The notes beneath the pieces were generated by a model, which made no database searches, was not told the DNA's origin, and saw nothing but the letters and a program-made list of their open reading frames with translations. The position numbers were made by a program, and so were the translations under genes. Source: a phage. Taken from it: a stretch of 44,263 nt of DNA. The stretch lies in assembly GCA_029038705.1 (NCBI GenBank), contig GCA_029038705.1_4346.1; one strand, given 5' to 3'. Shown here in pieces: positions 13,830 to 40,502 of this stretch; position 1 is the stretch's first letter; every line of letters begins with the position of its first letter.

Positions 13830-13915
13830 AAATCTACTGGTTCTATGAAGAAGACTGTCGAATCTGTCCGCGCTGCGGGATTGAGCACACGAAACGTGAG
13901 GGGTGCGTATTATGA
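13826..13915 (+). CDS. Hypothetical tiny Cys-rich protein
   Basis: 29 aa (MKIYWFYEEDCRICPRCGIEHTKREGCVL); ATGA-coupled. Confidence 0.25.
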   Translation: MKIYWFYEEDCRICPRCGIEHTKREGCVL

Positions 13916-14409
13916 AAGCACCAAGTGACGATATAAAAGATTTTCTGTCATACGACCCGGATACCGGGATATTTAAATGGGTCAAGCACAGATGCCAGAC
14001 CGCGAAACCCGGAGATGTTGTTACATACAAGGACCGTAAAGGGTACATATTGTTAGGATGGAGTAGGGTGTATTACCGCGCACACAGGCTGGCGTGGTGG
14101 TGGGTGTACGGAGAGATGCCAACTAAGCAAATAGACCATATTAACGGCATACGGGACGATAACCGGATTTGTAACCTACGGCTTGCGGATGAATTTCAAC
14201 AGAACCATAACCGCAAGACCCCAGTTACGAACACCAGCGGCGTGAAAGGGGTTAACTGGAGTAAGCCTCATAATGCTTGGTGTGCTCGAGTTGCTTTTAA
14301 AGGTACACGCTATCAGATTGGGTATTTCCAGAACCTAAATGAAGCAGAGGAATCCCTGAGAGAATTTAGGGTAAAACTGCACGGAGAGTTTTGCAACCAT
14401 GGCGACTAA
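13912..14409 (+). CDS. HNH homing endonuclease with AP2-like DNA-binding domain
   Basis: HRLAWWWVYGEMP...IDHINGIRDDNRICNLRL...NHN is the HNH motif; SGVKGVNWSKPHNAWCARVAFKGTRYQIGYF is AP2-like. Track start 13903 is GTG; ATG at 13912 has GAGGGG upstream. Confidence 0.8.
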   Translation: MKAPSDDIKDFLSYDPDTGIFKWVKHRCQTAKPGDVVTYKDRKGYILLGWSRVYYRAHRLAWWWVYGEMPTKQIDHINGIRDDNRICNLRLADEFQQNHNRKTPVTNTSGVKGVNWSKPHNAWCARVAFKGTRYQIGYFQNLNEAEESLREFRVKLHGEFCNHGD

Positions 14410-16975: not shown

Positions 16976-17008
16976 AGAAAAGGCCCCGTTTGGGGCCTTA
17001 GTTTTTAG
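16976..17008. terminator. Bidirectional terminator between the replication and tail modules
   Basis: AAGGCCCC-GTTT-GGGGCCTT, flanked by T-rich sequence on both strands. Confidence 0.6.
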
Positions 17009-18957
17009 AGTATGCGTATTTCCCCGCCGTGTATGGCGACAGGAGTAGCCAAATAAGGACTTTTTACCACAACGAAGCCATTTTCGTTGCTCACCACCGG
17101 CGGCTTCGATACATCGGATGTAGAAAGCGCCACCGCGGTCCTACCGGCTACATGCCCGAGCCAAAACCATGTCCCCAAGTTATGGTCTATTTTAAGGGCG
17201 AGGAACAGTAATTGGGTATCTGAGTATTGAATCTGTGTTGTCCATTTTGCTCGGGTGTCTGAGCCAGAAATCTCTGTAGAGACGCTCGCGCCAACTGTGT
17301 ACCCTGCGGAGCTACCATTGCTCATCTTCCCGTTAACAAGCTGCGGGTGGTATTTACTGGTCTGCTTGGCTTTCCCTACAACTGAACTAAGTCCTAAATC
17401 CGGGTGGTAGAAGACTATAGTCTGGTCTACTGTGCTGGCCTCTTTAGCGGATGCAGCGGGTAGTGTTGTACCGCCGGGTTTTATATCTGTTTGCCAGTGA
17501 ATGTCAGAAAGGTTGTACGGCGACCCTTCGTTAAGGTTCCACCAAACGGCCCCTCCCCCAATACGGTTATTAGGAAGAATACGCACGTTAGTATTATCGT
17601 CAAATGCGCCAAACATTTTCATACTACTGCCGTAAATCCAACAGTTATCCATAGTGATATTATTGGCGCTCGTTGCTATGACGCCATATACACCACTTTC
17701 GTCTGACTCTATGTAGCATGAATCAAACTTGATGTTATATGCTCCTGCAATCCAAACGCCATGGGTACGAAAACTTTCAATGCCGCAGTTGAACAGCGTA
17801 AGAGCTTCAACAGCCCCTTCGAACTTAATGCCGACATCACACTTGCCTGTATGAACTGATACTAATGGCTGAATGTTACATTCATCGGTAAAGTGGTAAC
17901 GGTGCAAGCCGTTAGTGTATGTACCGTTACACTGTAGGTTCCTGAACATGGAGTAAAAACAGCGCTGAGTGTAAATCAACTGCTGGACGTTTACACCAAC
18001 AATATCTGTAACTTCGCAGCCAAATACATGGTCCCGCAGACGAAAGCCTTGATAGAAATTAATCAGTGTAGCATTGCGAATTGTTGTCCCTATAGTTAGA
18101 TACTCTTCACCAGATTTTCCAAAAACCGAAGAGATAGTGCCAGTAGAAGTTATATAGCCAGTCTCAATGAACACGTTAGTTGTGTCAGAAGTGTCGTCAC
18201 GCCCTACGATACGAGCGCCCTGAAAATCGATCACTTGCATCCTACGCTTAGGGAAATTAGTTGCTTCAATGCCAGATGGAGATTCTGAAGCCAACACATA
18301 AACTTTACCGGCGATGTAGTAGCTTTTCCACGGAGTAGCAACAACTTTAACACCACCCGCGCGCCACGCGGCGACTATAGCCGCCTGAAACGCCGATGTG
18401 TCGTCATGGCGACTAGGGTTTGGGCTTCCGTTTACCAGGTAGGCGTCACCGTATGCGCCAAAATCATCAACGTTAATCTCCTGTTTGAGTTTATCCATTA
18501 CGGTGAGTGAAACCGAATCGGAATACCCAGAATTGAATCCCACCAAAGATGCGCCGGATAGATCTGCTAGCTCATTGCGCAAATCCGGGTCAGTCTGCGG
18601 CTTCCAGTTAGCGTTACCAACCGGGTTAAACGATGCGGGGACAACAACCGGCAGAGTCCCGGTATACGAGTACCACGTCTTGCTTACAGGGGCATACACC
18701 ACTTTGTCTCGGTCATTAACTGTTAATGTCCCGCCTGTAGAAAAGTCCCACGACACGGGAGAAAATCCCGCGCCACGCAACACGGCGGGTAACGTCTTCT
18801 GTGTCTGTCCGGTAACCTGATTTGTTGCATAATCAATATCAGCACCAGTAGCAACACCGCCGGATTTGCCGGTGATAACCTCGGCTTCAAAAATTTGGTG
18901 TTTCTTGGCGGTCTGTAAATCCACCAGGCTTAAAACGTCACCGCATCCGCTTGACAT
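17005..18957 (-). CDS. Tailspike / tail fibre with right-handed beta-helix (pectate-lyase-like) domain; candidate depolymerase
   Basis: 650 aa, last gene of the tail operon; DDTSAFQAAIVAAW resembles the pectate-lyase-family motif; repetitive Gly/Asn/Thr-rich beta-strand segments. Confidence 0.7.
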   Translation of the reverse strand: MSSGCGDVLSLVDLQTAKKHQIFEAEVITGKSGGVATGADIDYATNQVTGQTQKTLPAVLRGAGFSPVSWDFSTGGTLTVNDRDKVVYAPVSKTWYSYTGTLPVVVPASFNPVGNANWKPQTDPDLRNELADLSGASLVGFNSGYSDSVSLTVMDKLKQEINVDDFGAYGDAYLVNGSPNPSRHDDTSAFQAAIVAAWRAGGVKVVATPWKSYYIAGKVYVLASESPSGIEATNFPKRRMQVIDFQGARIVGRDDTSDTTNVFIETGYITSTGTISSVFGKSGEEYLTIGTTIRNATLINFYQGFRLRDHVFGCEVTDIVGVNVQQLIYTQRCFYSMFRNLQCNGTYTNGLHRYHFTDECNIQPLVSVHTGKCDVGIKFEGAVEALTLFNCGIESFRTHGVWIAGAYNIKFDSCYIESDESGVYGVIATSANNITMDNCWIYGSSMKMFGAFDDNTNVRILPNNRIGGGAVWWNLNEGSPYNLSDIHWQTDIKPGGTTLPAASAKEASTVDQTIVFYHPDLGLSSVVGKAKQTSKYHPQLVNGKMSNGSSAGYTVGASVSTEISGSDTRAKWTTQIQYSDTQLLFLALKIDHNLGTWFWLGHVAGRTAVALSTSDVSKPPVVSNENGFVVVKSPYLATPVAIHGGEIRIL

Positions 18958-28307: not shown

Positions 28308-28808
28308 ATGGATTGGAGTGAGGTTTTTAGCTACAAAAATGGCGTCCTATACTGGAAAGTCAAATCATGTCGCCGTAACGATGTGAATATAGGTGATGTG
28401 GCCGGGAGTTTGTGTAAAAACGGCTATTGGTATGTCATGTTTGGTAACCGTAAGTTTAAAAGGTCGAGGGTGGTGTATGAGATGTTCTCAGGTAAGATTC
28501 CAAAAGGATTTGTCATAGACCATACTAACCATGATACCTGTGACGACAGAATTGAAAACCTGTCATGCAAATCTAGAAGGGACAACATGGTTAACGTGAA
28601 AAGGCGCAAAGATAATACCTCTGGAGTTACGGGTGTGGCGCGGAAAGGAAAAACTAAGTGGAGAGCTTATGCCGTTGTCAACGGTAAGCAGATTAGTAAA
28701 ACATTTGACAGAATAGAGGACGCTTTCGCTGAAAGAATTTACATGTCTGTGGCTAATAGGTTTCACATAAATCATGGACTGACAACATTCAACAACGGTT
28801 ATAAATAG
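28308..28808 (+). CDS. HNH homing endonuclease with AP2-like domain (paralogue of 13912..14409)
   Basis: GFVIDHTNHDTCDDRIENL...(HNH) and SGVTGVARKGKTKWRAYAVVNGKQISKTF (AP2-like). Confidence 0.8.
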   Translation: MDWSEVFSYKNGVLYWKVKSCRRNDVNIGDVAGSLCKNGYWYVMFGNRKFKRSRVVYEMFSGKIPKGFVIDHTNHDTCDDRIENLSCKSRRDNMVNVKRRKDNTSGVTGVARKGKTKWRAYAVVNGKQISKTFDRIEDAFAERIYMSVANRFHINHGLTTFNNGYK

Positions 28809-36006: not shown

Positions 36007-36468
36007 TTATTCTGGCTTAGTGACCTTCGCCGCTTTGCTGACAGCCTCTACACCATCGGCATCAGTAACTTTAACGAAGTATTCCCCAACAGAATTAACC
36101 GTCAGATACAAAGCCTCTTCCGGGGCGTTAACCACTTCCTTCCCGTCTTTGTACCAGGTCAGCGCATATGGTGCTTTGCCCGCCTTAACTTCGACAGCGA
36201 TATTTGCGCTGCCGTCTGCCAGTTCAGCGTCCTGCGGTTGTACGGAGAAATACACATCACCAGCATCCGCCAGGTACTGAATCTCATAAAGCATGCCCGC
36301 CGCCGGTAGCGCAATACCGGTTTTATCTGCAAACGGCATATCGTCTACGGGCGCACCCAGTACACTTTCATCTTCAATAAATACCACGTTCTCGCCGGAG
36401 CCAGGCACACGGGCGTACTGGACTACGCGACGCGACGGTACATCAGTTACTTTGAAAAAGCCCATCAT
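36007..36468 (-). CDS. Ig-like domain protein
   Basis: 153 aa; ALTWYKDGKEV...VGEYFVKVTDADG is an Ig-like pattern. Confidence 0.5.
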   Translation of the reverse strand: MMGFFKVTDVPSRRVVQYARVPGSGENVVFIEDESVLGAPVDDMPFADKTGIALPAAGMLYEIQYLADAGDVYFSVQPQDAELADGSANIAVEVKAGKAPYALTWYKDGKEVVNAPEEALYLTVNSVGEYFVKVTDADGVEAVSKAAKVTKPE

Positions 36469-37544
36469 TATTCCCCTTTCAGATAATCAGCAACACGTTT
36501 ATCGAGTTCCGCCATCTGCTTAAGCGTGAGCGGATTCCCGAAACCATCTACAGATATTACGCGAAACTCTTCCGGCGATATACCGCTGTTACGGAAAATC
36601 TTACCCCGCACCGGGCCTAGAGCCTGGTCCTGAAACCATGCCGGTTGTTGTTTCAGGAACTCGTAGTAAGTGGTGTCTGCGCTTACCTGAGTACCTCCGT
36701 CCGCACCCTTAGCCGCGCGTTTTGCGCCTTTATCCAGGAAGTCGAACTCCGAACTGATTACCGGAGCCGTGCACGACCGGCAGTTCGGATGGGCGGGGGG
36801 CATCGGCCCTTTACCGATTTCCCACGTCATCCCATCTCTGGCCTTGCAAACGGCTGAGGTCCTAGAATCAAGAGTAGACACCCACTCATATTTCTCGATA
36901 ATGTCGTCGTTCTGGCGGTACGTCTCATTACGGGCTTCGTTGGACACGTGGGACAGCGCGGTGCGGATTACTGTAGCAGCGTGTTTCTCTGATACGTCAG
37001 CCAGGCCGCCTTTACCAACTACTTCTTTAACAATCTGCCGTGTGGTTTGGCCTTGCACAAAGCCCATCTTAACGCCAGTTACAAGGCGCGCGACCTCCGC
37101 TTCACCCCAGCCTGACATCAGCTTGGTGAAGTCAACGGGCTTGTCACTTAGCGACAGAGGTTGAAACTCGGCAGCGGCCCACACCTGCTCGGCGGTAGGT
37201 GTAACAAATTCCGCGTTAACGTTGGTGGTAAGTGTCTTTACGTTCCACTCAGCCTCATATGCCGCCAGTTCCTTAAGGTCTTCTGTCAGCTTTGTTTGCC
37301 AGTCAACTGTAAGTCCAGCCAGTGCTTCTTCAAGGTCGCGTAACAGTTTATTCAGCCGGGCGGTGCTGCGGCCATCATCGCCGAATAACAGCACCTGCCG
37401 TTTGATTTCGTCCCGCATCTCCTGAATGAACGGTGCTAGGTCTTTCACCTCACCGGATGCAGTACGTTGCAGCCATATCTGGTGGCTAATTAGAGATGTA
37501 AGTAAGCTCATAAGCCCTCCTGTAGTATCGACAGTGTAACGCAT
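36468..37544 (-). CDS. Head morphogenesis protein (Mu F / SPP1 gp7-like)
   Basis: 358 aa; VSTLDSRTSAVCKARDGMTW...PPAHPNCRSCTAPV matches the MuF-family Cys/His motif; position after portal. Confidence 0.7.
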   Translation of the reverse strand: MRYTVDTTGGLMSLLTSLISHQIWLQRTASGEVKDLAPFIQEMRDEIKRQVLLFGDDGRSTARLNKLLRDLEEALAGLTVDWQTKLTEDLKELAAYEAEWNVKTLTTNVNAEFVTPTAEQVWAAAEFQPLSLSDKPVDFTKLMSGWGEAEVARLVTGVKMGFVQGQTTRQIVKEVVGKGGLADVSEKHAATVIRTALSHVSNEARNETYRQNDDIIEKYEWVSTLDSRTSAVCKARDGMTWEIGKGPMPPAHPNCRSCTAPVISSEFDFLDKGAKRAAKGADGGTQVSADTTYYEFLKQQPAWFQDQALGPVRGKIFRNSGISPEEFRVISVDGFGNPLTLKQMAELDKRVADYLKGE

Positions 37545-37647
37545 AAAAATAATATCTCAGGGAATTTTTTCTTATTGCGGTGCGATGTCTTGCTGTGGTA
37601 CATGTATATACACAATCTTTATACTAGAAGAAGCGGAGGGTATTTTA

Positions 37648-38997
37648 ATGGGGTCCAGACGTTTAACTGAAGAAGATGTAAACCTGAGACTGGCGTCACG
37701 GGGTATAGTAGTAATTGAGTATGCAGGCCACTCTAAACTTAAGTCTAAATTCCGCTGCCGTAGTGGCCATGTGTGGGAGACAAAGGCCAATACCGTCCTA
37801 AACGGTCATGGTTGCCCCCAATGCTACGCTGCGGAAAAACGGGCGAAAGTAACAGAGTGGCCTAATGGGGTTGAATGCCTTAATTACGCAGGTGCTGTAA
37901 GTGGGAAATCAACGTTCAGATGTAAATGCGGGTTCGTCTGGTCCGCTACCGGCAGCGACATTTTAAGGGGTAAAAGTCATTGCCCGAATTGCAGCACTAA
38001 CAGAAAAAGGCTCGAGATCGGAGAAATAGAGGAAAGGTTACGCGGCACTGGTTTTGAACTGGTGTCTTATTCAGGGGATATCTGCCGTGCGCCATCGACA
38101 CTGAGGTGTCAAAAAGGCCATGAATGGGCCTCTACGCTTGGTAACATTTTTCAGGGTAGAGGGTGCCCGCGGTGCGCGTCGTTCGGGCGTAGTAAAGTGG
38201 AGGATGAAGTCTGTGAATTTCTCGATAGCATGGGGGTGGAATATCATCGGAATGATAGAAGTCTTATCCACCCAAGAGAGATAGATATTTTAATACCGCA
38301 ACATAATCTGGCGATAGAAATAAACGGCCTGTACTGGCACAGTGAAGCTGCCGGGAAGGGGAGAAAGTATCACATGGAGAAAAGAGTCGCCGTTGAGGAA
38401 AGAGGGTTCAGGCTCCTGTCAATAAGGGATGAGCTATGGCTGCATAAAAAAGAAATAATAAAGAAAATAATCGGCCATTCCGTCGGCGTCTCTTCTTTGC
38501 GAGTTTTCGCCCGCAAATGCCATGTAAAAGAGATTAACAAAATATGTGCAGAGCGTTTCCTGGAGGAGAACCACATTCAAGGATTCCGTAACTCGACGAG
38601 GTATATCAGCCTCGTTTATGAAGAAAAGATTGTTGCGGTAATGACGCTGACGTGTAGAAAAGGTGAATGGGAGCTTGTGCGGTACGCTACGTCGTGTTCG
38701 GTGGTAGGCGGGCTGTCGAAGCTATGGGCCTATGCCGTGCGCCGTTATAGCATCACCGACGGTTTTACCTACACTGACCGGGATTTATTTACCGGAGAAT
38801 CATACCTATCAGCGGGGTTTAAAAAGGCTTCTGTGAGATGTGGATTCCGCATCGTCGTAAACAATGCGACTAAAACAGAATCACGGCAAAAATGGAACAA
38901 AGCGCCAGAGGGGCTTACACAGTCGGAATGGTACGCTGCGGAAGGTGTATCCCGCATATGGGATAGCGGACAAGAGAAATTGGTATGGAATAAGTGA
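37648..38997 (+). CDS. Stand-alone nuclease with repeated zinc-ribbon modules and a PD-(D/E)XK-like core (homing-endonuclease-like)
   Basis: Three repeats of a C-x-x-G/C-H...CPxC module (CRSGHVWET..CPQC; CKCGFVWSA..CPNC; CQKGHEWAS..CPRC), then REIDILIP...AIEINGLYWHS. Start is probably the ATG at 37648 (GGAGGG RBS), not 37585. Confidence 0.55.
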   Translation: MGSRRLTEEDVNLRLASRGIVVIEYAGHSKLKSKFRCRSGHVWETKANTVLNGHGCPQCYAAEKRAKVTEWPNGVECLNYAGAVSGKSTFRCKCGFVWSATGSDILRGKSHCPNCSTNRKRLEIGEIEERLRGTGFELVSYSGDICRAPSTLRCQKGHEWASTLGNIFQGRGCPRCASFGRSKVEDEVCEFLDSMGVEYHRNDRSLIHPREIDILIPQHNLAIEINGLYWHSEAAGKGRKYHMEKRVAVEERGFRLLSIRDELWLHKKEIIKKIIGHSVGVSSLRVFARKCHVKEINKICAERFLEENHIQGFRNSTRYISLVYEEKIVAVMTLTCRKGEWELVRYATSCSVVGGLSKLWAYAVRRYSITDGFTYTDRDLFTGESYLSAGFKKASVRCGFRIVVNNATKTESRQKWNKAPEGLTQSEWYAAEGVSRIWDSGQEKLVWNK

Positions 38998-38998
38998 G

Positions 38999-39026
38999 AT
39001 TAAGGCCCCAATAGGGGCCTTAATAT
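38999..39026. terminator. Hairpin terminator between converging genes
   Basis: TAAGGCCCC-AATA-GGGGCCTTA. Confidence 0.5.
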
Positions 39027-40502
39027 TTACTCCTGCTGTTGCTGCTGCGCCGACTGCGGAATCTCCCCCGTCACCTGAGTAACGGCCCCCAACGGCAATG
39101 GTGCATCCTCGATAGCGTTCTGAATGTCTTCATCCTTCCAGTCAGTTACACCCGCCTTGCGCAACGCAGCATAGTAAGCGGTGGCGGGCAGCAAGCCAGC
39201 GTTAATGTCCGCCATCCACTGGGCGCGGTCCTGAGCTGTCATCGGTTGTAGGAAGAACTCCATGTTCAGCTTGAATTCAATCTCTGTGTCTTCGCGCAAC
39301 CCTAGCATCGCCGCTACCCAGCGCAATGCATCGGTATACGCCATGCTTACGTTACGCGCGATTGTTGCCATGACTGACGTATCGGCGCCGCGTTGCAGGC
39401 GGGCGGATTCGGCGGTGATTTGCTGCGTCGGGGTGATAAGCTGCGCGCCAATCTGAATGGCCTGATTCTCTTTATCCAGCATATTCTGTTTGGCGAGGTT
39501 GTTCTCTCCTGCCTGAACAAGAAATGCATTGCCGCCGTAGCCGATGTTATGGCCTGAACGTGACCCCATGCGCACGCCGTGAGGGTTAGCTTCTTTCCAC
39601 TGTTCCATGCTCATGTTCTCACCGGGGGCGATGAACAGAGTTGGCTGGCCTACAACGAAGCTGGATTCCTCATTGTCTGCGCTGTTACGGAAATGTCCGA
39701 TATTAAGCTCAGCCAACGGCAGCAAAGGCGCATCGTCGATAGTAGCGTCGTTGTTGCTTGCACCAATGAACGTGAACGGGATTTTGCCACGTAACTGTTC
39801 GCCGAGTTCCGGGAAGATTTCGATTACTTCACCCTGTGCGCCACCTTCTGCGTCAAAGCGGTAAATGCGCTGACGGTAGCGACCGTCAATCAAATCGAGA
39901 ACGCGGTATTGCTCACCGAACTTTGTTTCGAACTCTGCGCCCGGTTCTGAGTATTCCCATACCTCACGCAATACAACCATCGTCACGCGGTTAACTGAAC
40001 CGACGCGAGTCAGTCGCCAGTTGATGATGTTCTCTGCGGTATAGAAAGCGATGACCGGGTTTAATAACCCCGCGTTCTGCTCTGCCGCCGTTGCCGCGGC
40101 GGTCTCCGGGGCGTCAACCAGCAACCCACCACGGCCCACCGAGTCAATCTCCATCAGCGTGTCCTGCGCGTGCTGCCACAGACCAACACCGGAGCCGTCG
40201 ACATTACGTAACAGGTACTCCAGTTCAGGCGGGATAATCTGCTCGGGGTCTTTGCGCATCACGGACCCAACCATCCCCGCCAGGGTACGTTTAGTAAAGT
40301 TGTAGCAGATAGCGCCGTTCTCGTATTCTTCCTGACGCTGTGCCGCGTAGGTCGGGTCTGGTTCGTTCTTCCCGACGTTGCGCAGGTAACGGATAAGGTC
40401 GCCTTCCAGCGCGTGGCGTACCTTCTGCCATTTATTGAAGTGATGCAGCCATTCCCGGTGTTTAGTCTTAACACCCTGATTCTGACCGTTCATAGTTAAC
40501 AT
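39027..40502 (-). CDS. Portal protein
   Basis: 491 aa, immediately downstream of TerL; acidic Gln-rich C-terminus. Assigned by size and synteny. Confidence 0.65.
   Translation of the reverse strand: MLTMNGQNQGVKTKHREWLHHFNKWQKVRHALEGDLIRYLRNVGKNEPDPTYAAQRQEEYENGAICYNFTKRTLAGMVGSVMRKDPEQIIPPELEYLLRNVDGSGVGLWQHAQDTLMEIDSVGRGGLLVDAPETAAATAAEQNAGLLNPVIAFYTAENIINWRLTRVGSVNRVTMVVLREVWEYSEPGAEFETKFGEQYRVLDLIDGRYRQRIYRFDAEGGAQGEVIEIFPELGEQLRGKIPFTFIGASNNDATIDDAPLLPLAELNIGHFRNSADNEESSFVVGQPTLFIAPGENMSMEQWKEANPHGVRMGSRSGHNIGYGGNAFLVQAGENNLAKQNMLDKENQAIQIGAQLITPTQQITAESARLQRGADTSVMATIARNVSMAYTDALRWVAAMLGLREDTEIEFKLNMEFFLQPMTAQDRAQWMADINAGLLPATAYYAALRKAGVTDWKDEDIQNAIEDAPLPLGAVTQVTGEIPQSAQQQQQE

Follow-up and report, generated by a model that had tools for sequence, protein, structure and literature searches.

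The window, a phage DNA contig of 44,263 nucleotides (nt; GCA_029038705.1_4346.1, NCBI GenBank assembly GCA_029038705.1), is the Kagunavirus (Guernseyvirinae) genome of an Escherichia coli phage and carries, with a probability of roughly three in four, a Hef-family homing endonuclease gene, intact and free-standing, in a variable slot between its portal and head-morphogenesis genes. The gene (37648..38997, + strand) encodes 449 amino acids (aa) followed by a stop codon and was classed as Hef-type on the basis of PHROG matches, homology to Hef-like proteins, an AlphaFold model and the ratio of nonsynonymous to synonymous substitution rates (dN/dS). Its product consists of three zinc modules, a Vsr-like nuclease domain and a Mom-like GNAT domain. 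Neither the allele nor its site had been seen in deposited phage genomes, but descriptions already exist of the family, of the nuclease fold and of the fusion of nuclease to Mom.

The gene had been proposed as an insert in the initial annotation of the window, and insert-free relatives were found when the window was compared with the phage JSSK01 by megablast and blastn. Homology to JSSK01 breaks at 37512, where the start codon of the head-morphogenesis gene forms the left edge, and returns at 39039. The intervening segment (~1.53 kb; 37513..39038), within which the last four portal codons fall, is missing from the deposited phages closest to the window. These relatives, JSSK01 and XY1, are ~96% identical to the window over the matched parts and both lack the gene; universal conservation at this position was therefore not found, the gene-less relatives being 96% identical. 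The insert was covered by none of 365 related phage records. In seven genomes, including JSSK01, XY1, VIPECOTH07, Bas76, EM1 and fEg-Eco06, a near-identical 69-nt spacer with a small hairpin of its own replaces the 1.53-kb insert and defines the empty site. The portal 3' end of gene-less XY1 (L019) is nearly the same as that of the gene-bearing lineage (39049-39518, with a sole difference at 39210), and its left flank is unlike that lineage; XY1 may carry an allele of the recipient type or may have lost the gene. No second copy of the endonuclease gene was found in the window.

An identical 449-aa protein was found on 14 metagenomic or SRA-assembled contigs. The gene occupied the same site in all eight contigs examined, in genomes of ~44 kb whose backbones differ (e.g., a large terminase of 416 or 423 aa and a portal protein of 489 or 491 aa). 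Around the gene these contigs share a 100%-identical tract with left ends that vary by contig (36783, 36834, 36433 and 36107) and right ends at 39456 or 40785. JSSK01 was 100% identical to the window rightwards from ~40400 and 87-95% identical across the portal gene adjoining the insert. Identical tracts with varied ends fit the pattern that homing with co-conversion would be expected to leave. A 96%-identical variant of the gene at the same site (L004) gave a dS of 0.31 and a dN/dS of 0.068; the gene is therefore kept by selection and is not decaying.

PHROG 3339 ('homing endonuclease') matched the protein at E 1.4e-75 and spans the nuclease and GNAT core, and PHROG 559 matched at E 4.7e-98 and spans nearly the whole protein. 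The label of PHROG 559, 'HNH endonuclease', is a misnomer for a Vsr-like fold. Classification of the protein as an HNH enzyme was rejected on three grounds: no HNH motif was present, no Pfam HNH match was obtained at E <= 1, and the fold is Vsr-like. A search of 50,697 deposited phage genomes gave best matches of only 44% identity, from Salmonella phage Jersey and E. coli phage VIPECOMC04. The Jersey match is annotated 'putative Hef-like homing endonuclease', and both genes sit between the portal and large terminase (TerL) genes, unlike the window gene. Relatives 46-47% identical were located at other sites, between portal and TerL (L024) and beside the major capsid gene (L023). The T-even phage N2 has, between nrdA and nrdB, a 530-aa 'Hef-like' gene whose product shares 33% identity with the window protein over aa 204-442 of the latter (E 5e-27), in the nuclease and GNAT domains; the N-terminus of the N2 protein (~250 aa) is unrelated to that of the window protein. 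The link to Hef runs via this N2 gene at nrdA-nrdB and not via the sequence of Hef from phage U5. Sandegren is said to have reported in 2005 that hef stands in place of mobE in U5 and that in vitro Hef cleaved DNA with the gene as well as DNA without it; the enzyme reportedly cuts near its own locus. In T4, mobE presumably lies between nrdA and nrdB, in which case the N2 locus would equal the hef locus of U5. According to a review, Hef of phage U5 cleaves nrdB (PMC2988022), and Hef-type enzymes were placed in the Vsr-like EDxHD family by Taylor et al. 2011 (PMC3239194). The likeness to a free-standing homing endonuclease, first suggested by the order of domains, was upheld by the PHROG 3339 match, by the homology to Hef-like proteins and by a match of the nuclease domain to I-Bth0305I.

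The nuclease domain (aa 183-278; 38194..38481, + strand) was assigned as Vsr-like (EDxHD-type) by profile and structure comparison, and the window protein has the Vsr-like nuclease fold. The Pfam models Vsr and MTES_1575 matched below threshold, and NCBIfam gave a weak Vsr match only. A profile of the family matched the I-Bth0305I catalytic domain (sequence of PDB 3R3P) at E 4.4e-7. Across 92 relatives, no variation was seen at E185, E211, D213, E224, G227, H231 or K245, and almost none at N226 and H242; E185, D213, N226 and H231 correspond to E170, D196, N208 and H213 of I-Bth0305I. The motif EINGLYWHS (aa 224-232), which had been read as part of a PD-(D/E)XK-like core, lies inside this domain. 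The superfamily was correctly named, PD-(D/E)XK including the Vsr-like domain; within it, the protein falls on the Vsr-like/EDxHD branch, apart from the classical (D/E)XK enzymes.

The nuclease domain is preceded by a tandem array of three treble-clef zinc modules (aa 14-66, 69-121 and 130-182; 37687..38193, + strand), which were identified from Pfam DUF4379, from in-register repeats and from the model. DUF4379 (PF14311, 'probable treble clef zinc finger') matched over three stretches at E 6.9e-13, with 49 bits against a gathering score of 24.5. In the AlphaFold model of the window protein (mean predicted local distance difference test score, pLDDT, 91.9), the zinc region forms three beta-beta-beta-alpha units. 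Modules 1 and 3 have the zinc-ligand pattern C-x3-H...C-x2-C, and module 2 has C-x-C...C-x2-C. An array of three tandem modules had been correctly recognised from the sequence at the outset, where all three were taken for Cys4 zinc ribbons; Cys4 holds for the middle module only. The modules presumably bind DNA. Between 2 and 8 CxxC knuckles were counted N-terminal of the nuclease domain in the 92 relatives.

The C-terminal domain (aa 285-449; 38500..38994, + strand), present as annotated at first but then of unknown type, was identified as a Mom-like GNAT domain by Foldseek and profile-profile alignment. Its fold is that of GNAT proteins (aa ~285-449), and its top PDB match by Foldseek was Mom of phage Mu (8BV8, E 2.5e-6); generic GNAT acetyltransferases ranked next. 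The Pfam Mom model (PF25680) gave no match to the window domain even at E <= 10, and NCBIfam gave no match for the C-terminal domain; two full-length relatives, P0042 (33% identical; 32.7 bits) and P0120 (29.2 bits), passed the Pfam Mom cut-off of 27.1 bits. Alignment of the domain to the Mom family alignment by hhalign gave a probability of 77% (E 2e-5, 127 columns). Alignment by hhalign to the Mu Mom sequence alone was weak (probability 2%), and plain hidden Markov model searches between the Mom and C-terminal-domain families gave 7-20 bits only. In the hhalign alignment, Mom residues H58, R111, S124, D149, R151 and Y159, which are essential or important in Mom (PMC13219725), align to H309, R345, S357, D377, R378 and Y386 of the window protein. 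Among the 92 relatives, H309, R345 and Y386 are invariant, D377 is present in 90 and a Ser or Thr at position 357 in 79; R378, the counterpart of Mom R151, is kept in only 39. Helices 413-416 and 425-432 lie between the final strands of the model, and the hhalign alignment ends before them.

Mom of phage Mu is a Gly-tRNA-dependent adenine modifier of double-stranded DNA (PMC13219725). Because the residues aligned to the essential ones of Mom are conserved, the Mom-like domain is most likely functional. A putative action at DNA, by flipping and recognising an adenine or by modifying one, is favoured; possible roles are self-protection via adenine modification in the target, base-flipping recognition, or another. 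A tentative extension, to which a low but appreciable probability is given, is that enzymes of the Hef family are bifunctional, the Mom-like domain being an active tRNA-dependent adenine modifier that marks its own target or carrier genome and thereby confers immunity to the fused nuclease. If that were true, each such gene would be a mobile, single-chain, restriction-modification-like selfish element with an aminoacyl DNA mark instead of methylation.

The nuclease and GNAT core was found at 1,016 places in 418 phage records; a single Campylobacter phage genome can hold as many as 12 copies, and PA5oct-like Pseudomonas phages have 5. In these phages, the copies within one genome each have their own variable zinc-finger array. 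Compared across sequences, the family appears to consist of a constant nuclease and Mom-like core joined to a variable N-terminal DNA-binding array. Deposited labels for its members are inconsistent ('HNH endonuclease', 'homing endonuclease', 'Hef-like', 'homing endonuclease EDxHD', 'putative nuclease/acetyltransferase protein', 'hypothetical').

By analogy with characterised enzymes, we infer that the window protein cleaves DNA, has a target site and homes actively. In a co-infection, the three zinc modules would bind the DNA of a gene-less phage, as in the analogy with Hef and I-Bth0305I, and the Vsr-like (EDxHD-type) domain would cut near the portal/head-morphogenesis junction. The break would then be repaired by recombination with the gene-bearing genome, and the gene would be copied together with flanks of variable length. 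A candidate for the target is the 69-nt spacer of the empty site, whose hairpin is palindromic.

Several points weigh against this account. Homing by the window protein is a prediction from sequence and analogy. The identical tracts could also be compatible with ordinary recombination between conserved flanks, phage genomes being mosaic, and cassette exchange without a nuclease could explain the gene, since unrelated cargos share the slot and its left segment. Gene-bearing and gene-less alleles differ at only 8 scattered fixed positions within ~400 bp, with no clear difference in target-site immunity. Within the nuclease domain, the fifth EDxHD position is H242 (His in 90/92 relatives) and not Asp, an assignment made from one profile-to-sequence match. 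At the end of the domain, the window protein has D261-E262 (38428-38433), a near-invariant acidic position that reads E-D in 89/92 relatives. The diverged L004 copy is the same as the window protein at aa 261-262.

The strongest alternative to homing, itself considered unlikely, is that the protein is a single-chain modification-restriction or counter-defence module, in which the Mom-like domain would mark the phage's own adenines and the nuclease would attack unmodified host or competitor DNA. Jumbo-phage fusions of Mom and a restriction endonuclease (REase) were read in this way by Iyer et al. 2021 (PMC7824862), the residues aligned to those essential in Mom are conserved in the family, and Mom itself is now known as a Gly-tRNA-dependent adenine modifier of double-stranded DNA (PMC13219725). 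Phages that are 96% identical do without the gene, however, and many paralogues with variable arrays occur per genome (up to 12 in some, 5 in others), where one modifier would suffice. The genes also lie in intergenic slots beside conserved genes, like homing endonuclease genes, and U5 Hef, according to a review, cleaves nrdB (PMC2988022).

The slot itself bears on a second and less probable alternative. Occupied E. coli-phage alleles have in common, whatever their cargo, a left boundary segment of ~55 nt (37512..37566). It was delimited by aligning four occupied alleles (window, L004, phiWAO78-1, 22664BS2) with empty sites. On its - strand the segment contains the Shine-Dalgarno sequence for head morphogenesis (37515-37521); on its + strand it has a promoter-like TCGACA-N16-TAATAT directed towards the cargo (37528-37555), the sole support for which is conservation across different cargos. 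The portal/head-morphogenesis gap is a hot spot for cargo: in phiWAO78-1, 22664BS2 and Jersey (L013 2425-3319, L014 2378-2830 and L002 687-1340), unrelated + strand open reading frames (ORFs) were found in the same slot. All slot cargo genes found in relatives are likewise on the + strand. Because all cargos share this strand and the promoter-like left segment is common to the occupied E. coli-phage alleles, the antisense orientation is a property of the slot and not of this gene. Transcription of the insert might, as initially suggested, interfere with the late operon. Degraded copies of the gene were sought by tblastn in the other-cargo inserts (phiWAO78-1, 22664BS2 and Jersey_05), where the best match reached only E 1.5.

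With such exchange of cargos in view, the gene might be passive cargo (a moron) of a recombination hot spot, moved via conserved flanks without involvement of its own nuclease. The unrelated + strand cargos in the slot, the 55-nt left segment common to occupied E. coli-phage alleles and the mosaicism throughout these genomes would all suit passive carriage. It is nevertheless held to be quite improbable, given that the intact protein belongs to a nuclease family with a DNA-cleaving prototype, is under strong purifying selection (dN/dS 0.068) and retains every invariant nuclease residue, and that paralogues occur at several different sites, always beside conserved genes. A decaying or domesticated nuclease with a non-mobile role, such as helping DNA packaging, is hardly credible: its location in the packaging and head module would suit such a role, and some HNH proteins of cos phages, encoded beside terminase genes, reportedly assist cos cleavage (background in PMC3592412), but the gene is dispensable, being missing from the closest relatives, its product is not an HNH protein, and its homologues occur in many other genomic contexts.

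The Hef-type gene lies, as first annotated, on the + strand between two - strand genes, with a ribosome-binding site of its own and a downstream hairpin (37648-38997, GGAGGG and 39000-39023). The left neighbour is the head-morphogenesis gene (36468..37511, - strand; a minor capsid protein like Mu F and SPP1 gp7), identified from the ORF list and from a Pfam Phage_Mu_F match of its orthologue in related contigs. The right neighbour is the portal gene (DUF4055; 39027..40502, - strand), identified from the ORF list and related contigs. The full + strand ORF extends over 37585..38997, and no ribosome-binding site precedes its earliest ATG. The likely start codon is the ATG at 37648: GGAGGG (37635..37640, + strand), read from the sequence, stands 7 nt before it, and the resulting 449 aa equal the length given by gene callers on all related contigs. 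The insert has a G+C content of 47.2%, modestly A+T-richer than its flanks (51.6-54.4%).

The endonuclease and portal genes converge, and a hairpin (38993..39031) lies between their stop codons. The 29-nt gap between the two stops is filled by its G+C-rich core (39000-39023), which has a 10-bp stem (39000-39009 / 39014-39023). Folding gave a free energy (dG) of -23.7 kcal/mol (z = -4.6), and 0/200 shuffled sequences were as stable. It lacks a T-run, and a terminator scan did not score it as an intrinsic terminator. Match counts in promoter and terminator scans were no higher than in shuffled sequence. A G+C-rich hairpin was present at the portal 3' end in all alleles, empty and other-cargo alleles included, and because similar portal 3'-end hairpins occur in gene-less relatives, the hairpin is a feature of the slot and not of the insert.

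Other variable features were recorded in and near the window. Two HNH_3 ORFs (13903-14409 and 28308-28808, both + strand; Pfam E 2.5e-12 and 6.1e-16) are located in segments unmatched in JSSK01 and are likely further free-standing nuclease genes polymorphic for presence and absence. The Hef-type gene is unrelated to either, in agreement with the initial annotation, which had set it apart from the two other nuclease genes of the window. A tail-spike ORF (17005-18957, - strand; Beta_helix, Tail_spike_N) also lies in a segment unmatched in JSSK01, which has a K1 endosialidase there; a difference in receptor or host range between the window phage and JSSK01 is therefore probable. In fEg-Eco06 (L017 1333-3270), the minor head (head-morphogenesis) gene is annotated with an intein, a further selfish element nearby.

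As a homing endonuclease gene, the window gene would add to the selfish elements found in structural-gene modules and would mark a boundary of genetic exchange among Kagunaviruses, for which JSSK01 and XY1 are natural gene-less partners in a homing cross. The Mom-like domain has seldom been noted across ~1,000 copies of the core in 418 deposited phage genomes. Mom itself was recently shown to glycylate adenine in DNA by means of charged tRNA, and homing endonucleases may carry an active version of this chemistry.

The gene was compared with the set of Hef and 'Hef-like' genes comprising U5 Hef, F-LimIII, F-LimVII, F-LimVIII and F-LimX of Dickeya phage LIMEstone1, Jersey_03, VIPECOMC04_00075 and the nrdA-nrdB gene of N2. 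Like the Hef-like genes, it encodes a homologous nuclease and GNAT core (33% identity to N2; 44% over the full length to Jersey_03), is free-standing, occupies an intergenic slot beside conserved genes and is present in some close relatives but not in others. It differs from them in site, theirs being portal/TerL or nrdA/nrdB and that of the window portal/head-morphogenesis, and it differs from the T-even Hef-like protein in its N-terminus, which consists of three DUF4379 modules in the window protein and of ~250 unrelated aa in the T-even protein. I-Bth0305I (PDB 3R3P), unlike the window protein, is intron-encoded, lacks a GNAT domain and carries N-terminal NUMOD/helix-turn-helix (HTH) modules; the residue that it has opposite H242 is D222.

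With Mom of phage Mu (PF25680; 8BV8, an adenine N6 modifier), the window protein shares the GNAT fold and has all six aligned residues. Unlike Mom, the window domain shares its chain with a nuclease and zinc fingers and falls below the Pfam Mom threshold, and the counterpart of R151 is found in 39/92 relatives; the HTH-like insertion of Mom (residues ~175-209), which is needed for activity, lies outside the alignment with the window domain. The protein also resembles the jumbo-phage Mom-REase fusions (Iyer et al. 2021) in combining a nuclease of the REase superfamily with a GNAT domain of the Mom family, and PA5oct-type Pseudomonas phages carry five homologues of the window protein. Those fusions, by contrast, were read as modification plus restriction, and the window copy resides in a 44-kb siphovirus.

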